Shown: positions 20,892-41,667, counted from the stretch's first letter. The stretch is DNA of 44,428 bases from Candidatus Binataceae bacterium (GCA_030037595.1 JASHQJ010000212.1:1-44428), one strand, 5' to 3'. Notes: generated by a model not told the origin, from the sequence alone. Made by a program: numbers and translations.

Positions 20892-20939
20892 TACTCTTGG
20901 TCGAATGCAACCGCATAGCCCGACATCCAGGAGACAACC

Positions 20940-21586
20940 ATGCTGGAGGGAATAACACGTATTCCGCCAGTCGACGTCGAGACCCGCCCCGACAGACTTG
21001 GGCGAAGCACTTGAGGAACAGCGCAAGCGCTTCGGCGCTCCTCTCCATCCATATCTCTTCTATGCGCGCAACCCGGCATATTCCGCGCCGCGCAGGCGAT
21101 GTGGACTGCAGTAGAGCAAGCCCCAGAGCAAGTACCCGGTACGCTTAGAGGGCTGCTCAACGGTCGCGTTGCCCGGTGGAATGGCTGTGAGTTCTGAATG
21201 GACTCCAACGCTGTCGTTGGCAGCAGACTTGGCGTCCAAACGAAAGGATCGAGGCTCTCAACGACTATGTGAAGAGTCCCCTCTTCACAGACACGGAGAA
21301 AGTGGCGCTCAAACACGCGGATGCGATCACCGATACCCGACGCGACGTCGAAGACAAACTATTCGCGCGTCTACAAAAGCACTATGACGATGACACTATC
21401 GCAGAGTTGACGATAATCATCGCGTGGGAGAACTTCTCCTCGAGCCTCAACCGGGCATTCCGGATACCATCGCAGTGCTTCTGGAAGCCGCGACCGACCG
21501 GCACGCTTGATGCTACGCACGATTCAACCGCGTATGCCTGCCGGTTCCGAATACAACCAGTGCCTCCAGGATATCGCTGCGCGTGA
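20940..21586 (+). pseudogene. AhpD/CMD-like redox protein with CxxU motif; three frameshifts
   Basis: AGGAG RBS + ATG 20940. Stitched: MLEGITRIPPVDVET/APTDLGEALEEQRKRFGAPLHPYLFYARNPA/FRAAQAMW...RVARWNGCEF*MDSNAVVGSRLGV/NERIEALNDYVKSPLFTDTEKVALKHADAIT...IAWENFSSSLNRAFRIPSQ; shifts near 20985, 21080 and 21238. Confidence 0.8.
21195..21238 (+). promoter_or_regulatory. In-frame UGA plus bacterial SECIS-like hairpin
   Basis: TGA 21195-21197; TGGAC/GTCCA, CCAA/TTGG and GCTGTC/GGCAGC stems with a G-initial apical loop (GTT) 18 nt after the UGA. Confidence 0.65.
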
Positions 21587-22019
21587 CGATACCGACGGCA
21601 CGGCCACCATCGGTGATCGGCACTGATCCGATTCGCTGCAGACGCATCACCTCGGCGGCGTTGATCAAGGTGCTGTGCGGAGCGAGGGCGATCGCCGGAT
21701 GGGTCATCACCGATCCGACCAGGGTCTTTCCGTTGACCTTAGCTGCATCCGTTGCGGGGATAGGCGCGCCAGCTGCGGTTAATCCAGGACCTCGAAGGTC
21801 CCGATCGGTTACAATGCCAACCAGCTTGCCCTCGCTGATCACCGGCAGCTGATTGATTCGATGTGTGCGTAACAGCGCGCGAGCCTGATCGACCGAGTCA
21901 TTCGGACCGACCGTGTAAAGCTTAGAAGTCATCCAGTCTTCGCAAGTAAGGAAAGTGATGTTTTTTCGTGTCGATTCCTGATGCTTCGAGTCTTTGTGCG
22001 CCGCGTCGGATGCAACCAT
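21513..22019 (-). CDS. CBS-pair domain protein (start uncertain)
   Basis: DWMT..L.TV.P, INQLPV..GKLVGIVTDRDL, IGSVPI..VGIVTRSDIL. Confidence 0.88.
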   Translation of the reverse strand: MVASDAAHKDSKHQESTRKNITFLTCEDWMTSKLYTVGPNDSVDQARALLRTHRINQLPVISEGKLVGIVTDRDLRGPGLTAAGAPIPATDAAKVNGKTLVGSVMTHPAIALAPHSTLINAAEVMRLQRIGSVPITDGGRAVGIVTRSDILEALVVFGTGRHTRLNRA

Positions 22020-22072
22020 GACACTTTCCTCGCCAAGACTAATTGCGCCGGTCGGACCTTTGGCGTCTGTAC

Positions 22073-22486
22073 TTACTTTGCTTGCAGGCTCTCGACGTAG
22101 GTCACGATCGCGTCGATTCTTTTCTTCACGGCGGCGTCACTCGCAGGATTGAATCCTTCGCCGGGATTCTGAAGCTTGACCGCGAAAAACGGCATCTCTA
22201 GCCGCTCATGAGAAGGGATTGCCTTGCGGCCATCCACGATGTCAACGACTTCATCGAACGGAAACTTGCCGCCGTGCAATGCCGCAAGCAGGGTTATGTC
22301 TGCCGGCTTCGTGGACATGCCGATCGTTTTATTCGCAGGACCATTACCCTTGCCGTCGGCACCGTGACAGTCGGCGCAGTAGGTATCATAGTCCTGCTTG
22401 CCGGATTGCGCCGCCGCAATTGAGAAGGAAGCTGCGATGACGGTCGCCAGGAGTGCCCCGCCGACGAGGTATCTTCGACGGTTCAT
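22073..22486 (-). CDS. Monoheme c-type cytochrome
   Basis: Signal peptide MNRRRYLVGG...AAAQ; CADCH; distal EMP; GAGGAGG RBS; ATGA overlap with the upstream gene. Confidence 0.88.
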   Translation of the reverse strand: MNRRRYLVGGALLATVIAASFSIAAAQSGKQDYDTYCADCHGADGKGNGPANKTIGMSTKPADITLLAALHGGKFPFDEVVDIVDGRKAIPSHERLEMPFFAVKLQNPGEGFNPASDAAVKKRIDAIVTYVESLQAK

Positions 22487-22869
22487 CCCTCCTCGTCTCC
22501 ACCGGTAATTTCTTCTTCGCCGCCCGCCGGCCCTCTCGGCGCACGCGACTTCACGTCGCGGCGAAGTTCGCGCAGATGGTCCTCGAGGCGCCGCCGCGCA
22601 GCGTCGAATGCCTCTCTGATCGCCACCGGGAGGTCTTCCGCGTGTTGCTTGTTGATCGATATTTCTGCCTGGGGCGTTCGGAGATCGATGCGGACTTTGA
22701 ACGGACCGCCGCGGCGATGATGATGAACCGCCGGCGCTTCGAGCACCACGTGGCACCCGGTGAGCCGTCCGAAGTATTGTTCCAGGGCTGCGGCATGTTG
22801 CTCGATCGTTGTGCGAATCGCGTCCGTCAACTCGAAGTCGCGCGAAGTAATTTGAAGAGGTCGTTGCAT
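22483..22869 (-). CDS. HPF/RaiA family ribosome-associated protein (short form)
   Basis: MQRPLQITSRDF, LTGCHVVLEAP..HHRRG..F.VRIDL, EDL.VAIREAFD.ARRRLED. Confidence 0.85.
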   Translation of the reverse strand: MQRPLQITSRDFELTDAIRTTIEQHAAALEQYFGRLTGCHVVLEAPAVHHHRRGGPFKVRIDLRTPQAEISINKQHAEDLPVAIREAFDAARRRLEDHLRELRRDVKSRAPRGPAGGEEEITGGDEEG

Positions 22870-22898
22870 TTTTGGTTCCTTCTGCCAGGTACTTCTAT

Positions 22899-23078
22899 CT
22901 AGTGCGTCATCTTCCACAAGATCTCGGCTTCAGCCTGCAGCCAATCCTGCGTCTCGTCTCCCGGGCCGCCATGTCGTGCCAGGTACAATTCGTAGGCGCG
23001 CTTGCGAATCTCTTCGTGACAGCCCGAGGCGATGCCGGCCTTGGTCGATTTTTCCGCGGGGATTTTGTCGTCTTCCAT
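22899..23078 (-). CDS. DUF2934-like small protein (59 aa), absent from the ORF track
   Basis: MEDDKIPAEKSTKAGIASGCHEEIRKRAYELYLARHGGPGDETQDWLQAEAEILWKMTH*; I..RAYELY..R.....DWLQAE.EI signature. Confidence 0.82.
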   Translation of the reverse strand: MEDDKIPAEKSTKAGIASGCHEEIRKRAYELYLARHGGPGDETQDWLQAEAEILWKMTH

Positions 23079-23167
23079 TTGATTACCCCATTTGCATCTG
23101 ACTTTGTCGCCGCTTGGCGGGCGGGTGCTTCGGCTAAAGCATCCGCCCGCTGCCGGGAGTCGGAGGC

Positions 23168-23683
23168 TTAAGCGGCGCTTTTCTTCTCGGCGTTGCCTTT
23201 CGGCGCTTCGACTTGGATCTTCACTTCCTTCGGAATAGCTTCCTTGGGCATCGGCGCCGTAAGTTCGAGCACGCCGTCATGATAGGTGGCCTTCAGATCA
23301 TCAGCTTTGATGCCCTCAGGCAACGAGATTGAGCGTTCGAAAGAACCATAGCGGATCTCGCGCCGCAGGTAGTCAGCCTTCTTGGTCTCGCTCTTTTCCT
23401 CGCGTGAACCTTTGATCGTCAGCATGTCGCCCACGACCTTGATATCGACGTTCTTGGGATCGATACCCGGCAGGTCGGTGCGGACGATCAACTTGCCGTC
23501 CTCGACGCGCGATTCGATCGCGGGGCGCATCGTGCCACCGGTTTGCCAATCGGCGAACAGGTCGCGGCCCGGGAAGCGGCCGAACCAGTCGCGATCAAAG
23601 CCGAAGCGCTCCAGCAGTTCGTCAAACTCATTCCGAAATCGATCCAGCTCCCTTGCCGGTCTCCACTTTTCAAGCAATCCCAT
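23168..23683 (-). CDS. Hsp20 / alpha-crystallin small heat-shock protein
   Basis: DLPGIDPKNVDI, LTIKGSR, EIRYGSFERSISLP, ATYHDGVLEL..P; AGGAGG RBS before ATG 23683. Confidence 0.93.
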   Translation of the reverse strand: MGLLEKWRPARELDRFRNEFDELLERFGFDRDWFGRFPGRDLFADWQTGGTMRPAIESRVEDGKLIVRTDLPGIDPKNVDIKVVGDMLTIKGSREEKSETKKADYLRREIRYGSFERSISLPEGIKADDLKATYHDGVLELTAPMPKEAIPKEVKIQVEAPKGNAEKKSAA

Positions 23684-23787
23684 TGTCGTTTGCCTCCTAC
23701 TGCTTTCTATTTTCCGCCCGCACGGAATACGTGGCGGTGTTTGTTGCACTTAAGATTCCCGATACTTAAAGCCCATTGAATTCGGGG

Positions 23788-24009
23788 TTACGCGCCCGGA
23801 GTATGAACACGCCCCGCGCTTCGTGGACCCTCGGACCTTTCGTTGATTCCGAGCCATTCGCTCAACGCCAACCAGAATCCGTGTCGAGATCGCTCGAGAC
23901 GTTTCGTTCGCAACACTTTCATGCGATCGCGGCGGTAGATTTCTTCTTCCGCGGCCGAGCGCAAAGCTCGGCGTGCGCGGGCGGCTTCGATTGAGATGCA
24001 TTTACCCAT
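23788..24009 (-). CDS. Small hypothetical protein (73 aa)
   Basis: MGKCISIEAARARR...GFWLALSEWLG; GGAGG upstream; overlaps the DUF2267 stop; its 5' part recurs at 24563. Confidence 0.5.
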   Translation of the reverse strand: MGKCISIEAARARRALRSAAEEEIYRRDRMKVLRTKRLERSRHGFWLALSEWLGINERSEGPRSAGRVHTPGA

Positions 24010-24451
24010 TGTCGTTGAACCTCCCCACCTCCTGGGTAAACTCCTCATCTGCTGCGGCCAGCCATAGCTCTCTCAATTTGGAGGGTAACTGGCTAAAGAC
24101 ATGACGAGCTTTGCCTTCGAGTCCAGTAGGACTGCTGAGCGCTTCCTGGAGCAGGCGAAAAACGCAAACTACCGCATCCTCGGCGTGGCGCAGATCCTCA
24201 AGCCCAACCATACGCTGAACCTCTTCGAGGAGCTGGCAGCCAGTTACAGAGCTAGCTCCGCGCCCGGGACAATAAAATGACATCCAGAGCATCTTCAGCG
24301 ACGTGGGCAACTGGGCGGCTACGTCCGCTGCTTCAGCCGGCGTCAGACGATCGCGCAACTCCTGCAATACGGCGAAGATAAGAATCTCGGCCCTGCGTTC
24401 GTCACACCCGAATCGTTCAGCAACTTCCTGCACGAATGCCCCGTCTTTCAT
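24002..24451 (-). CDS. DUF2267-like protein, copy 1
   Basis: FVQEVAER...AVLQELRDRLTPAEAADVAAQLP...VFRLLQEAL...HVFSQLPSKLRELW; internally repeated helical motif. Confidence 0.82.
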   Translation of the reverse strand: MKDGAFVQEVAERFGCDERRAEILIFAVLQELRDRLTPAEAADVAAQLPTSLKMLWMSFYCPGRGASSVTGCQLLEEVQRMVGLEDLRHAEDAVVCVFRLLQEALSSPTGLEGKARHVFSQLPSKLRELWLAAADEEFTQEVGRFNDNG

Positions 24452-24563
24452 CGAGCTTCTCCATTGAAACCTGAAGGTCACAGCACCAATGACTTGCCTC
24501 CGCTGCAGGCGAGCGAAATGCGTGGCGTGCGGGGGCCCGCGTTTCGATTGAGATGCACCCCAT
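24417..24563 (-). pseudogene. Truncated duplicate of the 23788-24009 small ORF
   Basis: MGCISIETRAPARHAFRSPAAE matches MGKCISIEAARARRALRSAAEE, then diverges and runs into copy 1. Confidence 0.45.
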
Positions 24564-24585
24564 CGTCGTTGAACCTCCGCGCCGC

Positions 24586-25005
24586 TTAAGCGAGGTCCTC
24601 GTCTGCTGCGGCCAGCCAGAGTTCCTTGAGGTCGGAGGGCAACTGGCTGAATACGTGGCGAGCTTCGCCTTCGAGTCCGGTCGGACTGCTGAGCGCTTCC
24701 TGGAGGACGCGAAAAACGCAAACCACGGCAGTTTCCGCGTCGCGCAGATCCTCAAGCCCAACCATACGCTGGACCTCCTCGAGGAATTGGTAGCCATCCA
24801 CACGTTTAACGCCGCGGCCGGGATAATCAAAGGACTTCCAGAGCATCTTCAATGAGGTCGGCAACTGGGCCGCAGCGTCCGCTGCTTCCGTTGGTGTCAG
24901 ACGATCTCGCAACTCCTGCAGTACGGCGAAGATCAGAATTTCGGCCCTGCGTTCATCACATCCGAATCGTTCAGCCACTTCTCTCACGAATACTTTGTCT
25001 TTCAT
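24586..25005 (-). CDS. DUF2267-like protein, copy 2
   Basis: Paralog of 24002-24451; TAA at the codon that is CAG in copy 1 makes it 10 aa shorter. Confidence 0.82.
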   Translation of the reverse strand: MKDKVFVREVAERFGCDERRAEILIFAVLQELRDRLTPTEAADAAAQLPTSLKMLWKSFDYPGRGVKRVDGYQFLEEVQRMVGLEDLRDAETAVVCVFRVLQEALSSPTGLEGEARHVFSQLPSDLKELWLAAADEDLA

Positions 25006-25163
25006 CGATCTTCTCCACTAAAGCGACGCGCCAGAGACTTTGCCTGCTGAGCCTGGAATTGAGTCCATGCGAGCAGCCAGGGAATCGAACCCGCGAAAAT
25101 CCGAAGTGTGAAGAGCATGTTCATGACCTCACCCCTGATGGATTGGGCTCGGCTTGCCTGTGC

Positions 25164-25550
25164 TCAGGCCGCCAACTTTTGAGCTCCCGCGGTGGGGAGA
25201 ACCCGGTAGCGCTTCAGGTAAGAGCTGCGCGCATCGAGAGACTTGAGACCTTTCAGCAGCTTGCCCGAATCGATTCCCAGCAGATCACATACGTTCTGGA
25301 AGTCGAACAGAGCGCGCGCTGATTGAGCAGGCTCGAACCAATCACGCACCTCCTCGAACTTTCTGCGCTGTGCCGCATTCGAACAGCTGCGATTCGCGAC
25401 GTAGGTTCTGATCGCGTCCTCAAGGACGGCCCACAGCAGGCGATATTCACCCTCGGGAATTGAGGAGCGGCGCCTGACCAGATCGTCGTACTGGCAGGGA
25501 AGAATCGCGTCGGTGAGGTCTTCGTTTGCGAGTTCGATTCGGCTCTTCAT
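25164..25550 (-). CDS. Hypothetical helical protein (128 aa)
   Basis: MKSRIELANEDLTDAILPCQY...EGEYRLLWAVLEDAI...EEVRDWF...FDFQNVCDLLGID; first gene after a sigma54 promoter; the long upstream extension in the ORF track is judged spurious. Confidence 0.75.
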   Translation of the reverse strand: MKSRIELANEDLTDAILPCQYDDLVRRRSSIPEGEYRLLWAVLEDAIRTYVANRSCSNAAQRRKFEEVRDWFEPAQSARALFDFQNVCDLLGIDSGKLLKGLKSLDARSSYLKRYRVLPTAGAQKLAA

Positions 25551-25618
25551 CTCGGTCTTCCCGTTTCGCTTTGTTTGCCTTGCGTTGGCTGTTTTGTTCG
25601 TTCGCAGAGCAGCCCATG

Positions 25619-25634
25619 TGCACGGCGCGTGCCA
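25619..25634 (-). promoter_or_regulatory. Sigma54 -24/-12 promoter of the leftward operon
   Basis: Minus strand TGGCACGCGCCGTGCA, exact GG-N10-GC, about 70 nt before ATG 25550. Confidence 0.75.
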
Positions 25635-25751
25635 TCGACATTTCCTTGCAACTGCGATGATGATCGTTAGGAAACTGGGGCATCCGCGCCCCACCCTGCG
25701 GCTATGGTTCCACAGGCGGAGCTGGAGGAATCGATCCGCCGGATGACCTCC

Positions 25752-25771
25752 ATTCCCGCACCAATGGGAAT
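25752..25771. promoter_or_regulatory. Candidate upstream activator site
   Basis: ATTCCC-N8-GGGAAT palindrome between two divergent sigma54-like promoters. Confidence 0.4.
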
Positions 25772-25831
25772 AAAGCAAAATTTGAACGGACTTCGATGCT
25801 GGCTGCGCGGTTACGTTTAACCCCCCGGACG

Positions 25832-25847
25832 CGGCACGGATTGTGAA
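25832..25847 (+). promoter_or_regulatory. Possible sigma54 promoter with -12 GA variant
   Basis: CGGCACGGATTGTGAA (GG-N10-GA), just upstream of the AGGAG RBS and GTG 25873. Confidence 0.45.
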
Positions 25848-25872
25848 TTGGTCCACCGTGGCAGGAGTTCCG

Positions 25873-26328
25873 GTGAACCAATCGACCAAAACGATCCTCG
25901 ACAACAATGGTGTCGTCCAGCCGGCACTCCGGGAGGCGCCGACTTTGGCCCATATACTATTAATCGTTGACGATGAAACAGAAGTCGCAGACACGTGCGC
26001 GCGCGTCCTGAAAAGAGCCGGCTTCGATTGCGTCGTCGCCAATGACGCACCGGCAGCGTTCGAGCTGTTTGATACGACGCACCCGGTGCTGGTCCTTTCG
26101 GACATCAACCTTCCCAATGGCAGTGGCTTCGAGATCGCGCGCTACGTTCGCGGCCGATCCCCGATCACGCCCGTGATTCTCATGACCGCGCAGCACACCG
26201 GCCAGGTCGCCGATCAGGCGGCGCGCGCGGGAGCTTCGCGTTACCTGCGCAAGCCATTTTCCAACGCTGATCTGACGGCCATCGTTAAATCCCTGCTGGA
26301 AGTCGATCCCGGAGCAGGAATCGTTTGA
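25873..26328 (+). CDS. Single-domain response regulator (receiver)
   Basis: LIVDDE, VLSDINLP..SGF, ILMTA, YLRKPF; start moved to GTG 25873 with AGGAG RBS. Confidence 0.87.
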   Translation: MNQSTKTILDNNGVVQPALREAPTLAHILLIVDDETEVADTCARVLKRAGFDCVVANDAPAAFELFDTTHPVLVLSDINLPNGSGFEIARYVRGRSPITPVILMTAQHTGQVADQAARAGASRYLRKPFSNADLTAIVKSLLEVDPGAGIV

Positions 26329-26349
26329 CCGGGCGGGGCTCAGGCGCCG

Positions 26350-27489
26350 ATGAAACAGATCTTCACACTCGCCTACAAGCTTCTGGTTAGCGACCGGGGC
26401 AAATACATGGCGCTCCTGGTGGGAACAACCTTCTCGGTTTTTCTCATCGTTCAAATGACATCGTCCTTCGCCGGCATCCTCACTAAGGCATCCGCCACCG
26501 TGATCAACGTCGGTGCGAAGGTCTGGGTAATGGACCCAGCCGCGACCAATACCGTGTTCGGCAGCATTCCTATGCCTGATTACGTGCTGGACGCGGTGCG
26601 AAGCATCAACGGTGTCAAATATGCAGTCCCGCTCTCCGTCAATTCGGCGATGTTGAGGCTACACGATGGCGCCTATCAGGCGGCCACGGTAATCGGTCTA
26701 GATGACACCAGTTTGCTCGGGAGACCGAAGCTATTGCAGGGTGACATCGACGATATCTTCGCCGAAAATGGATTCATAGCGGTGAAAGACGAGGAATTTC
26801 CCAAGCTCGGGAACCCAACGGTCGGAACCGAATTCGAACTGAACGATTATCGCGGCAAAATCGTAGGCATTGCCACGGTACCCACCGGCGCCCTTTTTGG
26901 TACTCCGACGCTCTACACCACTTACTACCGGTCGATCACTTATATACCCTCAATGCGCTTTACCATTTCCTATATTCTGGTTGAGCCCAAGGCTAACTCA
27001 GATATCCCGTACATCAAGCGCCAAGTCGCGGCACTTGGTTACCTCGCCATGACAAACCGGGAATTCCAAACCGGAATTTCCAACTATCTCAAATACAGGA
27101 CCAGCATCGGCACCAACACGCTCTTGATGACCGTCATAAGCTTTCTCGTGGGCCTCTCAATAACCGGCCAGACCTTTTACACGTTCATTCTCGAAAACCT
27201 CGAACACTTCGGGGCGCTTAAAGCAATGGGCGCCAAGGGCCGTGAGTTGGTCTACGTGATCATCTTCCAGGCGGGATTTACCGCACTCGTCGGCTATGGT
27301 CTCGGAATTGGCCTCGCGACGCTGCTGATAACCGCCGCGAAGCTCAGGTTGCCGGAATACGCGTCGCGCGTGACCTTCACCAATCTGGGCCTGGCCTTTG
27401 TTCTGGTTGTGATAATCGCGAGTGCCTCCGGTTATGCCGGCGTGCGTAGGGTACTGAAGATCGAACCATTCGATATTTTCCGGGGATGA
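26350..27489 (+). CDS. ABC exporter permease (MacB/FtsX/DevC-like)
   Basis: TM1 + large periplasmic loop + 3 TM; GQTFY.F..ENL..FGALKAMGA, IEPFDIFRG. Confidence 0.88.
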   Translation: MKQIFTLAYKLLVSDRGKYMALLVGTTFSVFLIVQMTSSFAGILTKASATVINVGAKVWVMDPAATNTVFGSIPMPDYVLDAVRSINGVKYAVPLSVNSAMLRLHDGAYQAATVIGLDDTSLLGRPKLLQGDIDDIFAENGFIAVKDEEFPKLGNPTVGTEFELNDYRGKIVGIATVPTGALFGTPTLYTTYYRSITYIPSMRFTISYILVEPKANSDIPYIKRQVAALGYLAMTNREFQTGISNYLKYRTSIGTNTLLMTVISFLVGLSITGQTFYTFILENLEHFGALKAMGAKGRELVYVIIFQAGFTALVGYGLGIGLATLLITAAKLRLPEYASRVTFTNLGLAFVLVVIIASASGYAGVRRVLKIEPFDIFRG

Positions 27490-27490
27490 C

Positions 27491-28195
27491 ATGCCGCAGG
27501 CGGCAATCATGGCCAATAAGCTCACTAAGTGGTTTGGGCAAGGAGAAGCCCGGACCTACGCGGTAAGAGAAGCGAGCTTCGAGGCAAACTGGGGCGAGAT
27601 GCTCTACATCGTGGGGCCGTCGGGCAGCGGCAAGACAACTCTCCTCAGCATGATTTCCGGAATCCTCCGGCCAAACTCCGGTTCAGTTACCATAGATGGA
27701 CGCGATCTGTGGAGCTTGTCGGACGACAATATCGCGGACTTCCGCCTCAACACCATAGGTTTCGTGTTTCAGGACTATCACCTCTTTCCGCGACTCACGA
27801 CCGCGGAGAATGTGGCAGTTCCATTGATTCTGCAGAAACGGAGCTGGGCAGAGGCTCTGCGCGCCGCCGCCAGCTGCCTTGAGATCGTCGGCCTGGCGGA
27901 TAAAGGCACGCTTCCGCCGACCAGACTCAGTGGCGGTGAACAGCAACGCGTCGCGATCGCGCGCGCGATCGTTCATCGGCCCGAAATTCTGATCTTTGAC
28001 GAGCCGACGGCGTCTCTCGATGGAGAAACCGGACGCAAGATCGTGTCGTTCGTAAAGACCGAGATTCTGACGGCCGAGCGATGCATCATCATCGTTACTC
28101 ACGATAGCCGAATCTTCGAGTTCAGTAACCGAATTATGGAAATGGAAGACGGCCGCATAACCGGCTTCGAGCAAGGAGTTGCTTGTGAAGCCTAG
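27491..28195 (+). CDS. ABC exporter ATP-binding protein (LolD/MacB-like)
   Basis: GPSGSGKTT, IGFVFQ, LSGGEQQRVAIARA, DEPTASLD, VTHD. Confidence 0.92.
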   Translation: MPQAAIMANKLTKWFGQGEARTYAVREASFEANWGEMLYIVGPSGSGKTTLLSMISGILRPNSGSVTIDGRDLWSLSDDNIADFRLNTIGFVFQDYHLFPRLTTAENVAVPLILQKRSWAEALRAAASCLEIVGLADKGTLPPTRLSGGEQQRVAIARAIVHRPEILIFDEPTASLDGETGRKIVSFVKTEILTAERCIIIVTHDSRIFEFSNRIMEMEDGRITGFEQGVACEA

Positions 28196-29117
28196 GGTAG
28201 AACTGGTTCTGGCCAGCCTCGGACTTATTGTCGGTCTGTTTGGCGCCTACATTTATGGCCTTCATGCGGCGCCTCAAACGCCTGCGTTCAATCCTGCGGC
28301 CAATCCTTACGCCAAGGGAATTTACGCTGAGGGTATCATCGAAAGCCATCAAAACAACGGCGCGAACATCAATATCTATCCGAACATATCCGGTACCATC
28401 ATCGAAATCCCGGTACACGAGGGTCAATTGGTCCAGAAGGGAACGGTCCTGATGCGCTTCGACGAGTCAGTCCAACGAGCCACCATGGAGGCTGCGAAGG
28501 CTCAAATCACGTATGCGCGGGCGCAACTCAAGAATGTCCGGGACGAACTCGCTAAGGATGAAGCTTCGTATCGGTTCGATCCTAAATCGATAAGCACGTA
28601 CACACTCGACGACGCGCGAAACGCCGTCAAAGTGGCGGCGGGCAACCTCGAAGTCAATGAGAGAAATTACGTTTCAGCCAAGACCCTGCTTGCGTGGTAT
28701 ACGATCAAGGCGCCGACCGACGGCAGGGTGCTAGCGATTAACTCTGCACTTGGCAGTTACGTAACTGCGAACCAGGGCACCTACGATACGTATACCCAGG
28801 GCTTCGACCCCGTGGTGGTGATGGGGCCATCGGAGGAGTACCTCAATGTACGTTGTTACATCGATGAGATACTGATTCACAGGCTCCAGCTAGGACCTAA
28901 AATGCAGGCACGGATGTTCATCCGCGGAACCGACATCAGCGTTCCACTGGAATTCGTAAGGGTACAACCGTACGTCTCTCCGAAGATCGAACTTTCTGAC
29001 GAGCGTCTCGAGCGGGTCGATGTAAGGGTATTGCCCGTCATTTTCCGATTCGCACAGAATGAGAAGCTGCCGGTCTATCCGGGTCAGTTGGTAGATGTAT
29101 ACGTCGCGGGAAAATAA
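28185..29117 (+). CDS. Membrane fusion protein (HlyD / periplasmic adaptor)
   Basis: N-terminal TM, lipoyl halves (SGTI..IPV.EGQ.V.KG; IKAPTDGRV), ERVDVRVLPV, PGQLVDVY; AAGGAG RBS before GTG 28185. Confidence 0.88.
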   Translation: MKPRVELVLASLGLIVGLFGAYIYGLHAAPQTPAFNPAANPYAKGIYAEGIIESHQNNGANINIYPNISGTIIEIPVHEGQLVQKGTVLMRFDESVQRATMEAAKAQITYARAQLKNVRDELAKDEASYRFDPKSISTYTLDDARNAVKVAAGNLEVNERNYVSAKTLLAWYTIKAPTDGRVLAINSALGSYVTANQGTYDTYTQGFDPVVVMGPSEEYLNVRCYIDEILIHRLQLGPKMQARMFIRGTDISVPLEFVRVQPYVSPKIELSDERLERVDVRVLPVIFRFAQNEKLPVYPGQLVDVYVAGK

Positions 29118-32009: not shown

Positions 32010-32037
32010 CGCGACCCTGCCGCTCAACTTTACGAAG

Positions 32038-33105
32038 CTAGTCCGACGCTCCGGCCGCGGGCAACTTGATGGTGAAAGTCGTGCCTCTTCCGAGTTCCGA
32101 CTGCACCTCAATTCTGCCGTTGTGCTCCTGAATGATGCGGCGGCTCATCCAGAGCCCGAGGCCGGTGCCGCTCTGTTTGGTCGTGTAGAGGAGGTCGAAT
32201 ATTCTTTTCAGCGCGTCGGGTGAGATCCCGGGTCCTGTGTCGGCGATAGTTAGATGTAGCCATCCGGGGGAGTCGCTCGGTTCGCGGCTCACAATCGTCA
32301 CCGCGCCTCCCTGCGGCATGGCGTCACGGGCATTGCTCAGCAGGTTGATCAACACGCGTTCAAGCGCCGTTGCATCTCCCATGATTTGTGCAACACCGCC
32401 GTCCAACTCGGTTCGGACGGCGATGCCCGTCTTGCGCATCTGCTCACCAATCAACAGCAGCGTGTTTTCCACCAGCTGATTGATATCGAGCGGCGCGACG
32501 GCTTTCTCGCGCTGCCGCGAAAGTTCGAGAAATCCCTCGATTATGCGGCTCGCCCGTTCCGCCTGCCGATGGATAGTGGCGAGATCTTCATTCAGTTCGC
32601 ATGCAGGCGTCGAAGGCGGCGATTCCAGAACCAATTCCGAGCGCGAACGAATCACCTGCAGAGGGTTGTTGAGGTCGTGCGCGATACCGGCAGCGAACGT
32701 GCCGAGCGTGATCACCGTCTCGGCCCTTCGCGCCTCAGTTTCCAGCGCGAGGCGTTGGCTGATGTCAGTGACTGCAGCCACCACCAGGTGGCCGCGCGAG
32801 GTGCCGCGCGCATATGTCAAGCCGATCTCGATTGGAAACTCGCTGCCGTCCTTGCGCCGTCCCGCGAGGCTGAGGCCGATGCCCATGGCACGGGTGCGGG
32901 GCGCCGCGAAGTAATCCTCGACATGTTTGCGATGACGCTCGCGGAGTGCGGTCGGTAAGAGCAGCTCGATCGGTTCGCCCACCAGTTCTTTCGGTGAATA
33001 ACCAAAGAGCCGTTCGACCTGGCGGTTCACTTCCAGAATCGATCCGCCGCGGTCAACAACTATCAGGCCTTCACTGGCAGCTTCGAAATACTCCTTGTAC
33101 GGCAC
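32038..33105 (-). CDS. Cytoplasmic PAS sensor histidine kinase (FixL-like PAS)
   Basis: LLP..LRERH...GRRKDGSEFPIEI PAS; AHDLNNPL H-box; NLLSNARDAM, DTGPGI, GTGLGL; no TM segment. Confidence 0.92.
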   Translation of the reverse strand: MPYKEYFEAASEGLIVVDRGGSILEVNRQVERLFGYSPKELVGEPIELLLPTALRERHRKHVEDYFAAPRTRAMGIGLSLAGRRKDGSEFPIEIGLTYARGTSRGHLVVAAVTDISQRLALETEARRAETVITLGTFAAGIAHDLNNPLQVIRSRSELVLESPPSTPACELNEDLATIHRQAERASRIIEGFLELSRQREKAVAPLDINQLVENTLLLIGEQMRKTGIAVRTELDGGVAQIMGDATALERVLINLLSNARDAMPQGGAVTIVSREPSDSPGWLHLTIADTGPGISPDALKRIFDLLYTTKQSGTGLGLWMSRRIIQEHNGRIEVQSELGRGTTFTIKLPAAGASD

Positions 33106-33151
33106 GGATCGACGCTTTCGATAACCGACAGATTCCTATTTACAGGGAGTT

Positions 33152-33160
33152 AGTATAGCA
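33152..33160 (-). promoter_or_regulatory. Extended -10 element (sigma70-type) for the kinase-regulator pair
   Basis: Minus strand TGCTATACT about 47 nt before GTG 33105. Confidence 0.4.
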
Positions 33161-33286
33161 ATCCAGGGCACAATATTTCCATGATTCGCCCATAGAAAGT
33201 GGCAGATGGACCGGGCGTTCACACTGAAGCCGACGATTGGTTTCGTTAACCGAATGGACTGCTAGCTGTTATACAGTCTTAACTTT

Positions 33287-33302
33287 TGGCTAGAATCACG
33301 CA
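33287..33302 (+). promoter_or_regulatory. Possible sigma54 promoter of the M50 peptidase gene
   Basis: TGGCTAGAATCACGCA, exact GG-N10-GC but weak elsewhere; 45 nt before ATG 33348. Confidence 0.4.
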
Positions 33303-33347
33303 TCAATTATTGATATCCGAGGGCGCGGAAGCAAGCGGTGAGAGACT

Positions 33348-34487
33348 ATGGCGGCGATACCGAGAAGCGCAATCCGGCTCGTCAAGATTGCCGGAATCCA
33401 AATCGACATCGACTATTCGTGGCTGATTGTATTTGGGCTCGTCCTGTGGAGTCTGGCGGCCGGTTATTTTCCGCAGGCTTACCCCGGATACGCCGCTTCG
33501 CAGTACTGGATTATTGGACTGGTCGCGGCCGTGCTCTTTTTCTCGTCGGTTCTGTTTCACGAGCTCTGTCACGCTATGGTCGGCAATCGCCTCGGCGAGA
33601 GCATCGACCGCATCACACTCTTCATCTTCGGCGGTATGGCGCATCTGAAAGGCGAGCCGAGATGTGCTGAGGACGAACTCAAAATCGCGGCGGCCGGACC
33701 GCTCAGCAGTATCGTGCTCGGCGTGTTCTTCTGGCTGGTGGCAAACGCGACCGCGATCGCCGGTCAATTCTCGCTCTGGACCGCAGTCTTCCGATACCTT
33801 GCGTTCATCAACGTGGCGCTCGCCATCTTCAACCTGTTGCCGGGCTATCCACTCGACGGCGGGCGGCTGCTCCGGGCCGCACTCTGGAAGCGATGGGGCA
33901 GTATCGAGCGCGCAACTGCGCGCGCTGCGGATTGGGGTAGAACGCTCGCTTGGGGCTTGATGGCGCTCGGCATACTCGAAATCTTTGGCGGCGCGCTGGT
34001 CGGCGGGCTCTGGTTAATCTTCATCGGACTTTTTCTGCGCGGTGCCGCTGCCAGCGGCTACCAGGGAACGATTGTCGAGCAAACTCTGCAACGCATTCGT
34101 GTCGGCGACATCATGACGGCCCGGCCCATTACGCTCGACGCCGAGATCGCAATCCCTGATGCAGTCGAGAACTATTTTCTCAAACTTGGGCACGGCGGAT
34201 TTCCGGTCACCGCCGAGGGGCGAGTGGTAGGAATCTTGTCTCTGCAACTGATTAGCAGGTGCCCGGTTGAAGAGCGCCCACACAAACGGGCTCGCGATCT
34301 CATGCGCCCGCTGGATGCGAGCATTGAGATTGGTCCCTCTGAGAGCGGTCTCGCCGCGATGCAACAGATGAACGATGTCAACTCGGGCCGCTTGATCGTG
34401 ATTGACAACGGACAATTCGTCGGCCTCATCACACTCAGCGGCATCACGCGCTTCGTTCAGATGAAGACCCAACTCGCCGCAGCCTAG
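33348..34487 (+). CDS. Site-2 protease (M50) with C-terminal CBS pair
   Basis: HELCH, LFIFGG, IAAAGP, FNLLPGYPLDGGR; CBS repeats (VGDIMT, GRVVGIL, FVGLIT). Confidence 0.93.
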   Translation: MAAIPRSAIRLVKIAGIQIDIDYSWLIVFGLVLWSLAAGYFPQAYPGYAASQYWIIGLVAAVLFFSSVLFHELCHAMVGNRLGESIDRITLFIFGGMAHLKGEPRCAEDELKIAAAGPLSSIVLGVFFWLVANATAIAGQFSLWTAVFRYLAFINVALAIFNLLPGYPLDGGRLLRAALWKRWGSIERATARAADWGRTLAWGLMALGILEIFGGALVGGLWLIFIGLFLRGAAASGYQGTIVEQTLQRIRVGDIMTARPITLDAEIAIPDAVENYFLKLGHGGFPVTAEGRVVGILSLQLISRCPVEERPHKRARDLMRPLDASIEIGPSESGLAAMQQMNDVNSGRLIVIDNGQFVGLITLSGITRFVQMKTQLAAA

Positions 34488-34682
34488 ACCGCCGCTCACG
34501 ACGACTAGCAAATCAACCCTCCATATCAGTTGTGCCTAGCATCGATTGGATCGAAGTTGGCGCAAACCATCGCGGCGCCACGGCTGGTTCGATTCGATAC
34601 AGTTGGCCAAAGTTTGTTTCTCTTCGTAACACTGGGGGCTTTGGTCATTCCGAATCGTGCCCTTAGTTCTGCTTGATTTTTT

Positions 34683-34698
34683 TGGCACACCACGTGCT
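34683..34698 (+). promoter_or_regulatory. Sigma54 -24/-12 promoter of the cox operon
   Basis: TGGCACACCACGTGCT, exact GG-N10-GC, 22 nt before ATG 34721, with an AT-rich stretch upstream. Confidence 0.75.
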
Positions 34699-34720
34699 CT
34701 TCGTCACGGGCTTTTGAGAT

Positions 34721-35401
34721 ATGGTTGCTGGTCTTCTTCCAGAAAATGTCACGTCCTTTGGCGGCCAGATAGATTGGGTCTTTACACTGATTTTCTATGT
34801 GGTCGGATTCTTCTTCGTTGTAGCCGAAATTCTGCTCGTCTACTTCGCCCTGCATTATCGGCGAGGTCGCGTGAAGCATGCGATCTACAGCCGCGGCGCC
34901 AAGCTTCGCGAAGCCGCATGGGTCCTTATTCCCGCGGCAGTGGTGCTGATCTTCGACCTGGCAATCGATGCTGCTGGGCATCGCGCCTGGGCGCTGGTCA
35001 AGGAAAATCCGCCGCAGGCCGAGCTCGAGGTCAAAGTCACGGCCAAGCAGTTCAACTGGAACTTCACGTATCCGGGGAAGGACGGAAAGCTTGGTGGCGC
35101 AAATGATTTGACATTTGAAAACGAGCTTCACGTTCCAGTCGGCAAGGTTGTTCGCGTTGTTCTGAACTCAGAGGACGTCATCCATAGTTTTTGGGTGCCG
35201 AACTTCAGGCTTAAACAGGACGTTGTTCCAGGCCGCAGAATCGTGGCGTGGTTCAAGGCAACAAAGACGGGCTCTTATGAGATCGCGTGCTCGGAGCTCT
35301 GCGGCTTTGGTCACTACTCGATGCGGGGCGTCGTGATCGTTCAATCCGAATCCGACTATGCGCGGTGGCGCGCAGAAGCTTTAGCGGGCGGAGCCAAATA
35401 G
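34721..35401 (+). CDS. coxB: Cytochrome c oxidase subunit II (CuA; no fused cytochrome c)
   Basis: 2 TM, QFNW.F.YP, DVIHSFWVP, CSELCGFGHYSM. Confidence 0.95.
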   Translation: MVAGLLPENVTSFGGQIDWVFTLIFYVVGFFFVVAEILLVYFALHYRRGRVKHAIYSRGAKLREAAWVLIPAAVVLIFDLAIDAAGHRAWALVKENPPQAELEVKVTAKQFNWNFTYPGKDGKLGGANDLTFENELHVPVGKVVRVVLNSEDVIHSFWVPNFRLKQDVVPGRRIVAWFKATKTGSYEIACSELCGFGHYSMRGVVIVQSESDYARWRAEALAGGAK

Positions 35402-35417
35402 GTATCTGGGTGAGGGT

Positions 35418-37154
35418 ATGTCAACTGCTGTTGCCGTCAGTTCCGTAGATCATGACGCGCGTGCGCACGAACATGAATTGGGCTTTGTGCGGCGCTACAT
35501 TTTCTCGGCCGATCACAAAGTAATCGCCAAGCAGTACATGACCTTGTCGGCGCTGATGGCGCTTATCGGCGGTGGATCGAGCTACCTGATTCGATGGCAG
35601 CTTGCATGGCCCGAAACGTCGATCCCTGGGTGGGGGCCGATAGGGCCGGACGACTATAACGCGCTCATCACCATGCATGGGACGATCATGGTGTTCTTTG
35701 TCGCGATGCCGCTGTTGCTTGGTGCGTTCGGCAACTACCTGATCCCGCTGATGGTCGGCGCTGACGATATGGCTTTCCCTCGCTTGAACGCGTTGTCCTT
35801 CTGGACCCTGTTTACGGCTTCCAGCGTGCTAATCGCCTCGTTCTTCGTGCCTAACGGCCCCGCGGCCGCGGGGTGGACTGGATACGTACCGCTGTCAGAT
35901 AAGGCGGTCTATACCGGAGTTACCTGGGGCCAGAATCTCTGGATCATCGCACTGGCGCTCGAATTTGCGTCGTTTCTCATGGGCGGCGTCAACTTCCTTG
36001 TTACCGGCCTCAACCTGCGCACGCGCGGAATGACCTTGATGCGCCTGCCGCTTCTGGTCTGGATGGAGTTGACCGCGGCTGTGGTTTTTCTACTCTCGGT
36101 CGGGCCGCTGGTGGCGGGAGCTATTATGCTCCTCCTCGACCGCACGATGGGCACGGGATTTTATCAGCCCGATCGTGGCGGCGACCCTCTCCTCTGGGAG
36201 CATCTCTTCTGGTTCTTTGGCCATCCGGAGGTTTACGTCGTGGCTCTGCCAGGATTCGGAATCATGCTAGAGGTGATTCCCGCCTTCGCGCGCAAGCCGA
36301 TCTTCGGCTACCGAATGATGGTCTATTCGACGATCGGCGCCGGTCTGCTGAGCTTCATCGTCTGGGCGCATCACATGTTTGTCTCTGGGATGGATCCGCG
36401 CCTGGCCAGCCCTTTCAGCGTCACGACGATTATGATTTCGGTGCCGTTCGCAATCATCCTCTTCGCGATGATCGCAACGTTGTGGGGCGGATCAATTCGT
36501 TTGGCTTCGCCGATGCTATTCGCGCTTGGCGGCGTCGCAACCTTCCTCATTGGCGGCGTGACTGGAATTTTCCTGGGTTCGGCAGCGGTCGATATCGTAA
36601 TGCACGGAACTTATTTCGTTGTCGCGCACTTTCACTACACCCTGTTCCCGGTAGTGTTCTTCGGCGGCTTTGCCGGCATCTACTTCTGGTTCCCGAAGAT
36701 GTTCGGCCGAATGATGAACGAAGCCCTGGCTCAGATCCATTTCTGGATTACGTTCGTGTCCTTCAACGTCGTATTCATTCCATTGTTCCTAGTGGGTCTG
36801 GGCGGGAGTCCGCGGCGAATCTACGAGCTATCGTCCTATGACTCGTTGAAGCACCTGCAGCCGTTGCACGTTGTTGCTACTATCGGAGCAATCGTTCTGT
36901 TGCTTGCCCAGGTGCCGTTCATCATCAACTTCTTCTATTCGCTCGCGCGTGGACCGCGAGCGGAGCGAAATCCCTGGCATGCTAACACGCTCGAATGGAC
37001 CGTAGATTCGCCACCTCACCATCCGAACTTCGCTCGGCCTCCGCGAGTGTATCGTGACCCTTACGAGTACAGCGTGCCGGGCGCGCTCCATGACTTCATA
37101 CCCCAGGATGTCGCGCCGGACGAACCAGTCGATGTTAAGGCGGTGGCAGATTGA
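35418..37154 (+). CDS. coxA: Heme-copper oxidase subunit I, A1-type motif
   Basis: DHKVI, TMHGT, DMAFPRLN, WFFGHPEVY, WAHHMF, VVAHFHY, PRRIY. Confidence 0.97.
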   Translation: MSTAVAVSSVDHDARAHEHELGFVRRYIFSADHKVIAKQYMTLSALMALIGGGSSYLIRWQLAWPETSIPGWGPIGPDDYNALITMHGTIMVFFVAMPLLLGAFGNYLIPLMVGADDMAFPRLNALSFWTLFTASSVLIASFFVPNGPAAAGWTGYVPLSDKAVYTGVTWGQNLWIIALALEFASFLMGGVNFLVTGLNLRTRGMTLMRLPLLVWMELTAAVVFLLSVGPLVAGAIMLLLDRTMGTGFYQPDRGGDPLLWEHLFWFFGHPEVYVVALPGFGIMLEVIPAFARKPIFGYRMMVYSTIGAGLLSFIVWAHHMFVSGMDPRLASPFSVTTIMISVPFAIILFAMIATLWGGSIRLASPMLFALGGVATFLIGGVTGIFLGSAAVDIVMHGTYFVVAHFHYTLFPVVFFGGFAGIYFWFPKMFGRMMNEALAQIHFWITFVSFNVVFIPLFLVGLGGSPRRIYELSSYDSLKHLQPLHVVATIGAIVLLLAQVPFIINFFYSLARGPRAERNPWHANTLEWTVDSPPHHPNFARPPRVYRDPYEYSVPGALHDFIPQDVAPDEPVDVKAVAD

Positions 37155-37190
37155 GGTCGCAACACAACCCCGGCGTGCGGTGAATGGAAG

Positions 37191-37796
37191 ATGGGTGCAG
37201 GCATTCAGACTATCGTTCAGCGGGACGAATACGACGATACGATTCGTCGTATTCCGCCCGGCAAGATGGCGATTTGGTGGTTTCTTGCCTCCGAAATCAT
37301 GTTATTCGGCGGGCTGATTACGGCGTTCGTGCTGTTTTCGTTCGCCTCCCACGGTGCATTTGCTGCAGATGCAAAGCACGTGCAATGGCGGCTCGGAGCT
37401 GTCAACACACTGGTTCTGGTGACGTCCAGCCTTACGATGATTCTGGCGTTAGGTTACGCGCGCGCGCACAATCTGGCACGCACTCGTCTATTCTTGTTGA
37501 TAACAGTACTTCTAGGACTGACCTTCCTCGGTATCAAGTCAATCGAATATACAACCGAGATTCGTGAAGGGTTCACGCCGGGCACAAGTCTTTTCTGGTC
37601 ATTCTACTTTGGGATGACTGGGTTACACGCCTTGCACATGATCGCGGGCATCATCATCAACTCATTCCTTCTCGTGGCAGCGCTCAGAAAAAAACCGTGG
37701 GACTTTCTTGAGCGAAGACTAGAGTTAGGCGGACTCTATTGGCACTTCGTTGACGTTGTCTGGATATTCCTGTTTCCACTGCTGTACCTGACCTGA
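37191..37796 (+). CDS. coxC: Cytochrome c oxidase subunit III (short form)
   Basis: FLASEIMLFGGL, NTLVLVTSS, TGLHALH, YWHFVDVVWIFLFPLLYL. Confidence 0.93.
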   Translation: MGAGIQTIVQRDEYDDTIRRIPPGKMAIWWFLASEIMLFGGLITAFVLFSFASHGAFAADAKHVQWRLGAVNTLVLVTSSLTMILALGYARAHNLARTRLFLLITVLLGLTFLGIKSIEYTTEIREGFTPGTSLFWSFYFGMTGLHALHMIAGIIINSFLLVAALRKKPWDFLERRLELGGLYWHFVDVVWIFLFPLLYLT

Positions 37797-37806
37797 CAGA
37801 AAGAAG

Positions 37807-38115
37807 ATGACTAACACTCCGAGTACGGATACATCAGAACGTAGTGAGAATTCTCTCTACTTTATCGTATGGGTCTGGCTGGTTGTACTGCTTGCAGTCG
37901 GTCTGTCTTTGTTTGGTCTGCCGATCCCGCGTCAAGTGGCAGTCGCGTTGATCTTTTCGGTAGCGGCGATCAAGGCGGCCCTTGTCCTTCGAAATTACAT
38001 GCACCTCAAGCACGAGCACTTTCTGATCTATCTGATAGTCCTAGTACCGCTGCTTTTCTTTCTGGGTTTCGCGTTGGCCCTCGTGCCCGATCTCGTATTC
38101 CGGCACGCGATGTAG
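37807..38115 (+). CDS. Cytochrome c oxidase subunit IV family protein
   Basis: Y..VW..L, IKAALV...YMHLKHE; 3 TM; follows subunit III. Confidence 0.88.
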   Translation: MTNTPSTDTSERSENSLYFIVWVWLVVLLAVGLSLFGLPIPRQVAVALIFSVAAIKAALVLRNYMHLKHEHFLIYLIVLVPLLFFLGFALALVPDLVFRHAM

Positions 38116-38117
38116 CG

Positions 38118-38360
38118 ATGGCAGCGTCATTAAACCGTATTGGTGCATGGTGCATTGCGTTCACGGCGATCGTTTTGGCGCCGCGCTTCGCCTACGCCTG
38201 TGCGAGCTGTTTTGCTGCATCGAGCAGCGCGGGTCTGCGAGCATATTACCTGAGCACCGTAATATTGACGTTGATGCCTTTCGTACTGATCGCGGCGATC
38301 GGCCTCGTGGCTTACAAATCGAGGCAGCGAGGATCGACCGCGAAAAGTTGTCCCGACTGA
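38118..38360 (+). CDS. Small membrane protein with signal peptide, CxxC and one TM (80 aa)
   Basis: MAASLNRIGAWCIAFTAIVLAPRFAYA-CASCF...YYLSTVILTLMPFVLIAAIGLVAY; starts 2 nt after the subunit IV stop. Confidence 0.7.
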   Translation: MAASLNRIGAWCIAFTAIVLAPRFAYACASCFAASSSAGLRAYYLSTVILTLMPFVLIAAIGLVAYKSRQRGSTAKSCPD

Positions 38361-38443
38361 ATTGCGAGGACCGCCGAAGAGTTTTAAAGCCGATTCGGCA
38401 GCAGTACACTGCGTCGTCGCAAGAACAATTAGAGACGCAGAAA

Positions 38444-38857
38444 ATGTCCAACCGAACTTCGATGCTCATCGCATCGGTGCTGCTCCTCTCGCTGGCCGGT
38501 CGTGGATTCGCTGCCCAACCGTCCGGCGCGCAAGAATTCACGACGTTCTGCGCTCGATGTCACGGGTCGGACGCTACCGGCAATGGGCCGGATGCCGGCG
38601 AGAAGCAAGGCTACTGGCCTGCGAATCTGACACTGATCGCCAGGAGCCATGGCGGCAAATTCCCCCGGCAGGAGATCTACGACATAATCGACGGTGGAAA
38701 GCGCTTGCCCGGCCACTACAATTTCGACAGTCCCATGCCGCTCTGGGGATTGAGCTTTCAGCTCAAAGGCAAGGAATATAGCGAGCAGAGCGAAGCGGCG
38801 GTACGCGCCAGAATAGAGGCACTCGTGGACTATCTCGAATCGATTCAGAAGAAGTAG
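38444..38857 (+). CDS. Monoheme c-type cytochrome
   Basis: Signal peptide, CARCH, PANLT, HGGKFP, PMP.WG; start ATG 38444. Confidence 0.88.
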   Translation: MSNRTSMLIASVLLLSLAGRGFAAQPSGAQEFTTFCARCHGSDATGNGPDAGEKQGYWPANLTLIARSHGGKFPRQEIYDIIDGGKRLPGHYNFDSPMPLWGLSFQLKGKEYSEQSEAAVRARIEALVDYLESIQKK

Positions 38858-38905
38858 CTTATGGGCCGACGCTTTCTAGTCCGACGTTCAGCCGAAACAT
38901 TGCTA

Positions 38906-41655: not shown

Positions 41656-41667
41656 CGAGCCTGCTGA

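Follow-up and report, generated by a model that had tools for sequence, protein, structure and literature searches.

A sigma-54 regulon in a Candidatus Binataceae bacterium: a FixL/DosP-like kinase, an NtrC-type activator and a fixed-position candidate enhancer ahead of a stress operon

We analyzed in silico a DNA stretch of 44,428 nucleotides from an uncultured, soil-type Candidatus Binataceae bacterium (GCA_030037595.1, JASHQJ010000212.1:1-44428), the whole of which is referred to below as the window. It contains the genes for a soluble PAS histidine kinase and for a sigma-54 activator of the NtrC type, named EBP1, among operons for stress proteins, an exporter, a protease and a cytochrome c oxidase. 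The original prediction held that this kinase and activator directly switch on all surrounding operons as one self-contained regulon. Our conclusion is that the sigma-54 regulon is real, and that it is neither self-contained nor single-tier. In the explanation that we consider the best as a whole, and fairly probable, the kinase-EBP1 pair acts through a candidate enhancer, UAS1, on the sigma-54 promoter of a stress operon that begins with the gene of the orphan protein hyp128, and the oxidase operon would be under another activator, for which a second one, EBP2, is the leading candidate.

Results

Two conserved sigma-54 promoters precede the stress and oxidase operons

As contig C379, the window is part of a metagenome-assembled genome (G000) of 5.18 Mb in 563 contigs, with a completeness of 88.7% and a contamination of 7.4%. 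Its gene map is based on Pfam and NCBIfam profile searches and open reading frame (ORF) calls; a crude gene caller, which mis-called several genes of the window, was used only for a rough division into coding and non-coding DNA. The genome encodes the sigma factor itself (rpoN on contig C357; DNA-binding domain, 212.8 bits) and has 19 strong matches to the Sigma54_activat domain. The relatives of the same genus are G038, whose locus L003 is the closest relative of the window, and G013; locus L009 belongs to another genus.

All four proposed promoter motifs are present, each ahead of the first gene of an operon. Motif 1, TGGCACGCGCCGTGCA (25619-25634, minus strand), precedes hyp128; motif 2, TGGCACACCACGTGCT (34683-34698, plus strand), ends 22 nt before the start of the oxidase gene CoxB; motif 3, CGGCACGGATTGTGAA (25832-25847, plus strand), lies 25 nt before the start of the stand-alone receiver RR151; and motif 4, TGGCTAGAATCACGCA (33287-33302, plus strand), precedes the gene of an M50 protease with a CBS pair (M50-CBS). 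As a sigma-54 promoter we accepted GG and GC dinucleotides 10 nt apart in a TGGCAC-N5-TTGCW-like context. Both dinucleotides and the context are found in motifs 1 and 2; motif 3 has GA in place of GC at -12, and motif 4 formally passes with poor flanks. Motifs 1 and 2 are also the only exact matches to TGGCAC-N5-KTGC in the window (2 versus 0.17 expected; a count of 2 was reached in two of 100 shuffles), and the whole genome contains 16 matches to TGGCAC-N5-[GT]TGC, nine of the TTGC type and seven of the GTGC type.

The motifs fared differently when the orthologous loci were compared. For motif 1, TGGCAC and GTGC are invariant in G038 and G013, with three differing spacer bases, and in loci L013, L015 and L016 the hyp128 homologue is preceded, at ~75 nt, by CGGCAY-N5-ATGCK. 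The DNA upstream of the oxidase in G013, where the oxidase neighbourhood differs, cannot be aligned with that of the window except for a conserved island, TGGCA[CT]A.C.CGTGCTCT, which contains motif 2. A sigma-54-like motif (score of at least 5, within 330 nt) precedes CoxB in 10 of the 22 upstream regions examined and in 7 of the 11 closer orthologues (at least 53% identity), and G043 has TGGCACATTACGTGCA 633 nt upstream of its oxidase. Motif 3 is present as CGGCACGGAT[TC]GTGAA ahead of RR151 in L003 and L009, identical save one spacer base, and its -24 half, GCGGCACGGAT, is the only string of at least 10 nt that is common with L009; this conservation across genera argues that the element is functional. 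At the equivalent place, L008, L010 and L011 have canonical sigma-54 motifs with GC. In L003, TGGCTA of motif 4 is changed to CAGATA, so that GG becomes AG, and the embedded -10-like box (TAGAAT/TAAAAT) and an upstream TTA-rich hexamer are kept.

Judged from these comparisons, motifs 1 and 2 hold as sigma-54 promoters. The -24 half of motif 3 is conserved; with the near-invariant GC replaced by GA, the motif counts as a candidate sigma-54 promoter. Motif 4 is rejected as a sigma-54 site, because its GG is lost while the overlapping box is kept, and the region reads as a sigma-70-type -10 box. The proposal that sigma-54 drives the M50-CBS gene was therefore dropped.

We considered whether the motifs might be chance matches or sites of other proteins, with the operons transcribed from sigma-70-type promoters. 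Consensus-like words with a score of at least 6 are indeed not enriched in the genome (303 versus 466 in the reversed-sequence control), but the matches in question are intergenic and correctly oriented, and have variable spacers between conserved -24 and -12 blocks. Of the best 33 consensus matches in the genome (score of at least 7), 18 lie in the ~13% that is non-coding by the crude gene call, which placed motif 1 in coding DNA because of an over-extended ORF. At each score class from 1 upwards, the genome contains fewer consensus-like words than the reversed-sequence control; spurious sites may be avoided in coding DNA.

A looser scan of the genome (YGG[CT]A[CT]-N5-[GA]TGC[TA]) gave 50 matches, from which no regulon could be drawn. 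Pfam searches of 19 naive downstream ORFs returned mostly no family, because the first-ORF rule often chose wrong frames; the families named were P-II, amidohydrolase, GFA and FBPase.

A composite candidate enhancer is found at a fixed distance from the hyp128 promoter

Upstream of motif 1 we identified the candidate enhancer UAS1 (25676-25702), which, read in the hyp128 direction, consists of three alternating half-sites, GCCGCA-ggg-TGGGGC-gcggat-GCCCCA. Its core palindrome, TGGGGC-N6-GCCCCA (25676-25693), ends 41 nt before TGGCAC and is identical in L003 and L016. The orthologous loci have an alternating half-site array of the form G[CT]CCCA-N2/3-TGGGGC-N6-G[CT]CCCA, and eight promoters have 40-41 nt between the end of its last half-site and TGGCAC. 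In L003, L005 (genome G123), L006, L008, L009, L013, L015 and L016, UAS1 is within or adjacent to the EBP1 locus.

The palindrome by itself is not overrepresented: the genome contains one perfect copy, that of UAS1, and 15 copies with one mismatch, numbers comparable to those for other spacings (4-12 copies) and for the reversed control (7). Yet 3 of these 16 palindromes have a sigma-54 motif (score of at least 6) at 40-41 nt, versus ~0.003 expected pairs as derived from the 303 motifs of that score. Besides the unit at hyp128, one is located at C177:7717-7734, followed by TGGCACAACACATGCT, ahead of the gene of the activator EBP2, and one at C272:6476-6493, followed by TGGCATGACGCGTGCT, ahead of a cluster encoding a hydrolase/phosphoribosyltransferase fusion, a PolX polymerase, a 4Fe-4S protein, a cNMP-binding protein and an NAD-binding oxidoreductase. 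With enhancer-promoter units on two other contigs and ~19 sigma-54 activators in the genome, the regulon is not self-contained.

Among 121 genomes of the family, the composite UAS1 pattern has 12 matches in nine genomes (5 of 30 genera), and the reversed pattern has none. The genes on the 3' side are hyp128 (three matches), EBP2 (four), a phosphoribosyltransferase-DLH gene (one), DUF2267 (one) and HSP20, with hyp128 and the kinase divergent (one); the remaining two (L144, the same sequence as L005, and L146) gave no match to our queries. The oxidase is never downstream. These results point to a regulon defined by UAS1, with the oxidase promoter outside the enhancer set. They also bear on the explanation by chance, since neither a fixed spacing to a conserved palindrome nor the lack of any reversed pattern in 121 genomes would be expected from it; we regard that explanation as scarcely credible.

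In locus L116 (G034:C2, 12300-14500), DUF2267 and HSP20 genes diverge from two sigma-54-like promoters and a single ATGCCCCA-GG-TGCCGC element lies midway between these. Further CBS genes, EBP2 and the oxidase are found within 8 kb.

The locus encodes an intact NtrC-type activator and a kinase with a FixL/DosP-like PAS domain

EBP1 (30618-32009, minus strand; likely start MATER at 32009) has the features of an NtrC-family enhancer-binding protein. It consists of a receiver (PF00072) with the acceptor Asp, an AAA+ domain (PF00158, E = 4e-71) and a C-terminal Fis-type helix-turn-helix of the HTH_8 family (PF02954), and the AAA+ domain contains the Walker A sequence GESGTGKE and an intact GAFTGA, as had been proposed.

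The kinase gene (32038-33105, minus strand) encodes a PAS-HisKA-HATPase protein of 355 amino acids (aa), which is soluble: its PAS domain begins at residue 6 and leaves no room for a membrane anchor. When residues 1-129 were compared with solved sequences, 19 matches were obtained, the top 14 of which are FixL, DosP/EcDOS or related haem-PAS kinases (E = 2e-13 to 2e-8). The alignment with the FixL haem domains is ungapped (E = 2.3e-13) and places the His of RERH in register with that of RSRH/HEH, which we take to be the proximal haem ligand on the F-alpha helix. Of the two residues that characterize FixL, the proximal His is thus present and the distal Arg is absent. That the kinase is a haem-based gas or redox sensor is a reasonable inference from this homology; specificity for O2, by contrast, is not upheld, as the distal position is a Leu.

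The kinase-activator operon is preceded by a sigma-70-like promoter, TGGAAA-18-TATACT (33152-33181, minus strand), which lies in a block kept in L003. It was found by a consensus scan of the window for sigma-70 promoters and terminators whose counts overall are not above those of shuffled sequences.

The hyp128 operon encodes stress and dormancy-type proteins

The gene of hyp128 (25164-25550, minus strand), a helical protein of 128 aa, heads its operon and is the target with which UAS1 is associated most constantly. It is followed on the same strand by a small hydrophobic ORF of 35 aa (25020-25127; tblastn identity 70.6% in L003 and 64.5% in G013), two DUF2267 genes (PF10025, E = 4e-22 and 1e-20 for the two genes; 24586-25005, and 24002 to ~24580, with the longest ORF of the second running to 24721), hyp83 (23750-24001), which abuts the next gene, and a small heat-shock protein of the HSP20 family (23168-23749; PF00011, E = 1.7e-23). 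The order continues with DUF2934 (22899-23078; PF11154, E = 5.8e-12), an S30AE/HPF-family ribosome hibernation factor (22483-22869; PF02482, E = 4.4e-17), a cytochrome c (22073 to ~22480; PF13442/PF00034) and a CBS-pair protein (21513-22019; PF00571). The dormancy-type cargo that had been proposed is thus present, with HSP20, the hibernation factor and the CBS-pair protein here and the M50-CBS protease elsewhere in the window. The cytochrome c and CBS-pair genes may form the tail of the hyp128 operon, as suggested by their orientation and the short gaps.

The DUF2934 and hibernation factor genes occupy an apparent gap of 411 nt, which had been masked by a longer, overlapping ORF call for the cytochrome c. 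A fair sigma-54-like match (score 6/8), CGGCACGCTTGATGCT (21499-21514, plus strand), runs antisense to the CBS-pair gene and overlaps its stop codon.

The 56 homologues of hyp128 are all annotated as hypothetical, and no family was found in Pfam or NCBIfam. Its gene shares an operon with those of the kinase and RR151 in L013-L016, and with that of EBP2 in L009. Of 29 aligned sequences, 24 have a C-terminus of the form L/M/I/V-A-A, and the protein of the window ends in LAA (25164-25166). The terminus of the ssrA degradation tag is similar; by this analogy, the tail suggests an unstable protein with rapid turnover. An AF2 model (pLDDT 68.7) has four helices; a Foldseek search against the PDB gave no match at E ≤ 0.001, and the best hit in a wide VIA-align search (Z = 5.6) corresponds to generic helical similarity. 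Pfam searches of 29 members gave HTH_8 in three (best E = 0.12) and Sigma70_ECF in two, no more than a hint of a helix-turn-helix.

Two blocks in the hyp128 leader (25551-25618, minus strand), GGGCTGCTCTGCGA and ACAAAACAGCCAACGCAAG, are kept without change in L003 and almost unchanged in G013. They could give the leader a structure or be a further site for a protein; a search of positions 20500-39500 against Rfam yielded no family, and hence no match for the leader.

The hyp128 and RR151 promoters diverge, with UAS1 between them at 138 nt from the RR151 promoter. On this other side, the RR151 gene (25873-26328, plus strand) begins with a GTG codon after AGGAG, a start taken from the comparison with L003. 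It is followed by genes for an FtsX/ABC/adaptor/outer-membrane exporter (to 30621, plus strand; Pfam and NCBIfam), an arrangement found in the same genus only. The M50 site-2 protease with its CBS pair is encoded at 33348-34487 (plus strand), with MjS2P (3B4R) as a solved relative (E = 1.7e-22).

The oxidase operon lacks UAS1 and may be under a second activator

The oxidase operon (34721-38857, plus strand) encodes CoxB, CtaD, CtaE, subunit IV and a cytochrome c according to Pfam and NCBIfam. The score of CoxB is above the TIGR02866 cut-off (165.3 versus 147.7) and that of CtaD is just under its own (628.8 versus 670.75), and the best solved relatives of subunit I are the actinobacterial and Rhodobacter aa3 oxidases (E = 5e-128). 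With subunits I, II (with CuA), III and IV and aa3 relatives, this is an ordinary A-family haem-copper oxidase and not the unusual one that was initially supposed. The genome contains three CoxB paralogues. A kdp potassium-pump cluster (38906-43485, minus strand), in which KdpC and KdpB were identified, is located directly 3' of the operon in convergent orientation.

No UAS1 was detected at the oxidase promoter, even with up to two mismatches, nor a palindrome in common with the hyp128 region. These results are central to the question of whether the local sensor and activator directly switch all four operons as one self-contained regulon. All four motifs precede first genes, the activator and kinase genes are central, and UAS1, placed between the divergent hyp128 and RR151 promoters, could serve both. 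Against this, UAS1 is present at the hyp128 promoter and absent from the oxidase and M50 promoters, motif 4 is unconserved, the oxidase is located elsewhere in L003 and in G013, and UAS1 units are found on two other contigs. A single activator for all four operons therefore appears highly unlikely.

EBP2, encoded on contig C177 behind the UAS1 promoter mentioned above, is a sigma-54 activator of 529 aa whose N-terminal 200 residues have no assigned domain. Full-length orthologues (50-58% identity) flank the oxidase in four of nine neighbourhoods (L116, L117, L118 and L120, in genomes G034, G033, G052 and G018), and in G043 and G072 EBP2 is directly behind a UAS1 promoter and adjoins EBP1. The C-terminal 70 aa of EBP1 and EBP2 give no local alignment, so that the DNA-binding ends are unrelated. 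The position of EBP2 beside the oxidase in relatives and behind UAS1, together with these unrelated ends, suggests a cascade from EBP1 to EBP2 to the oxidase.

Two further features of this contig were observed. An archease gene lies immediately upstream of the EBP2 promoter. Three kb from EBP2, in locus L122, the divergent sigma-54-like motifs TGGCATGGCGCATGCT (12632-12647, minus strand) and TGGCATGGACGATGCT (12817-12832, plus strand) precede genes for triose-phosphate isomerase and class V fructose-1,6-bisphosphatase.

Discussion

The analyses favour the following mechanism. A soluble FixL/DosP-like PAS kinase and EBP1 would form a two-component system, the genes of which are probably transcribed from their own sigma-70-type promoter. 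Phosphorylated EBP1 would bind the composite palindromic UAS1, predicted to be centred ~75 nt upstream of the transcription start, and open the sigma-54 promoter at 25619-25634. This promoter would drive hyp128, the small peptide, the two DUF2267 genes, hyp83 and HSP20, and transcription probably continues through DUF2934, the hibernation factor, the cytochrome c and the CBS-pair protein. The other UAS1-promoter units would drive EBP2 (C177) and the operon for the phosphoribosyltransferase/hydrolase, PolX, Fe-S and oxidoreductase proteins (C272). Lacking UAS1, the oxidase promoter most likely depends on a different activator. EBP2 is the foremost candidate, and the cascade would then have two tiers. 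RR151 and the LAA-tailed hyp128 are candidate feedback devices.

Several observations weigh against this explanation. UAS1 is unusually near the promoter for an NtrC-type activator, as the classic NtrC enhancer sites are farther away than 40-41 nt. Considering the contamination of the assembly, C177 and C272 could be mis-binned, but G038 has the identical split arrangement. No enhancer is shared among nine oxidase promoters, where no palindrome or 8-mer is present in more than three of them; what joins EBP2 to the oxidase is consequently gene neighbourhood, in a genome with ~19 activators. The oxidase promoter would leave a leader of only ~12 nt. In the kinase, the distal Arg of FixL (GIGR/GIDR), which presumably contacts bound O2, is a Leu (GIGL), so that the ligand may or may not be O2. 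Finally, UAS1 is also found ahead of EBP2's own gene, and four of the five UAS1 genomes tested contain both EBP1 and EBP2; the co-occurrence therefore does not distinguish between them as the binder of UAS1.

It follows that UAS1 could instead be the EBP2 site: EBP2 would then regulate its own gene and drive hyp128, DUF2267, HSP20 and the phosphoribosyltransferase cluster, and EBP1 would act elsewhere, for example at the RR151 or the oxidase promoter. The direct position of UAS1 ahead of EBP2 in G000, G038, G043 and G072, and the presence of hyp128 after EBP2 in one operon in G043 and G072, agree with such a role. On the other hand, L003, L005, L006, L013, L015 and L016 have UAS1 in the EBP1 locus and no EBP2 within the fetched DNA, and G123, a genome whose completeness is not given, has no full-length EBP2 orthologue, its best match covering residues 213-525. 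We therefore consider EBP2 an unlikely binder of UAS1, and retain EBP1 for this role.

A more far-reaching version of the EBP1 mechanism is possible, which we put forward tentatively: a two-tier sigma-54 cascade of the Binataceae that works like DosR, in which a FixL-like haem-PAS kinase acts on EBP1, EBP1 acts through the fixed-position enhancer on hibernation and chaperone genes and on EBP2, and EBP2 acts on a dedicated extra aa3 oxidase and on additional stress genes, with the LAA tail of hyp128 and RR151 providing fast negative feedback.

The system resembles several known ones and differs from each. It shares with FixL/FixJ of rhizobia the soluble PAS-HisKA-HATPase layout and a homologous PAS domain with the proximal His, and the NCBIfam FixL model matches the kinase, below its cut-off (E = 5e-48). 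Unlike in that system, the partner is an NtrC-type sigma-54 activator and not a LuxR-type regulator such as FixJ, the distal Arg is replaced by Leu, and the best NCBIfam match of the kinase is AtoS, also below cut-off (E = 6e-70). EBP1 has the receiver, the AAA+ domain with GAFTGA, HTH_8 and the dyad-symmetric upstream element with multiple half-sites of the NtrC/AtoC class, but it scores below every equivalog cut-off (AtoC, 491.7 versus 714), its enhancer is fixed at 40-41 nt from the -24 element, and its cargo consists of stress and dormancy genes and not of nitrogen or acetoacetate genes.

Likeness to the DosS/DosT-DosR system of M. tuberculosis consists in a haem-based gas or redox kinase, which is predicted here, and in overlapping gene content, for which the mycobacterial proteins were matched by description only. 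Members of the DosR regulon include the HSP20 protein HspX, the CBS protein hrp1 and a protein that is HPF-like. The DosR-related genes named in passages of one paper include the phosphoribosyltransferase Rv0571c, the putative zinc metalloprotease Rv2625c and hrp1 (Rv2626c) (PMC7753917). The present system differs in having a sigma-54 activator versus the NarL-type DosR, a PAS versus a GAF sensor, and an M50-CBS gene without a supported sigma-54 promoter; it falls outside the DosR type. Since the regulator class differs in both cases, the system is a member of neither the FixLJ nor the DosRS group. NtrY/NtrX is similar in that a haem-PAS redox kinase is paired with an NtrC-family regulator. 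NtrY is membrane-bound, unlike the soluble kinase described here, and the NtrX match of EBP1 in NCBIfam is below cut-off (408 versus 600). For B. abortus NtrY, a passage of one report describes haem binding via the PAS domain (PMC7240162).

The literature searched contained no paper joining Binatota with sigma-54 and, by title or abstract, nothing relevant on a sigma-54 regulon for hypoxia or dormancy. The locus shows how proximity by itself led to misassignment: the oxidase and the protease, and possibly also the exporter, had been placed under one regulator. For the Binatota, which are uncultured and widespread, it provides a testable regulatory unit of sensor, activator, fixed-spacing enhancer and promoter, in which a FixL-like sensor is tied to the genes of a ribosome hibernation factor and of small heat-shock, CBS and DUF2267 proteins. 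If our explanation is true, a dormancy-type gene set like that of the NarL-type DosR would have been wired independently to sigma-54, and three families that are now orphans, namely hyp128, DUF2267 and the EBP2 N-terminal domain, would gain functions.

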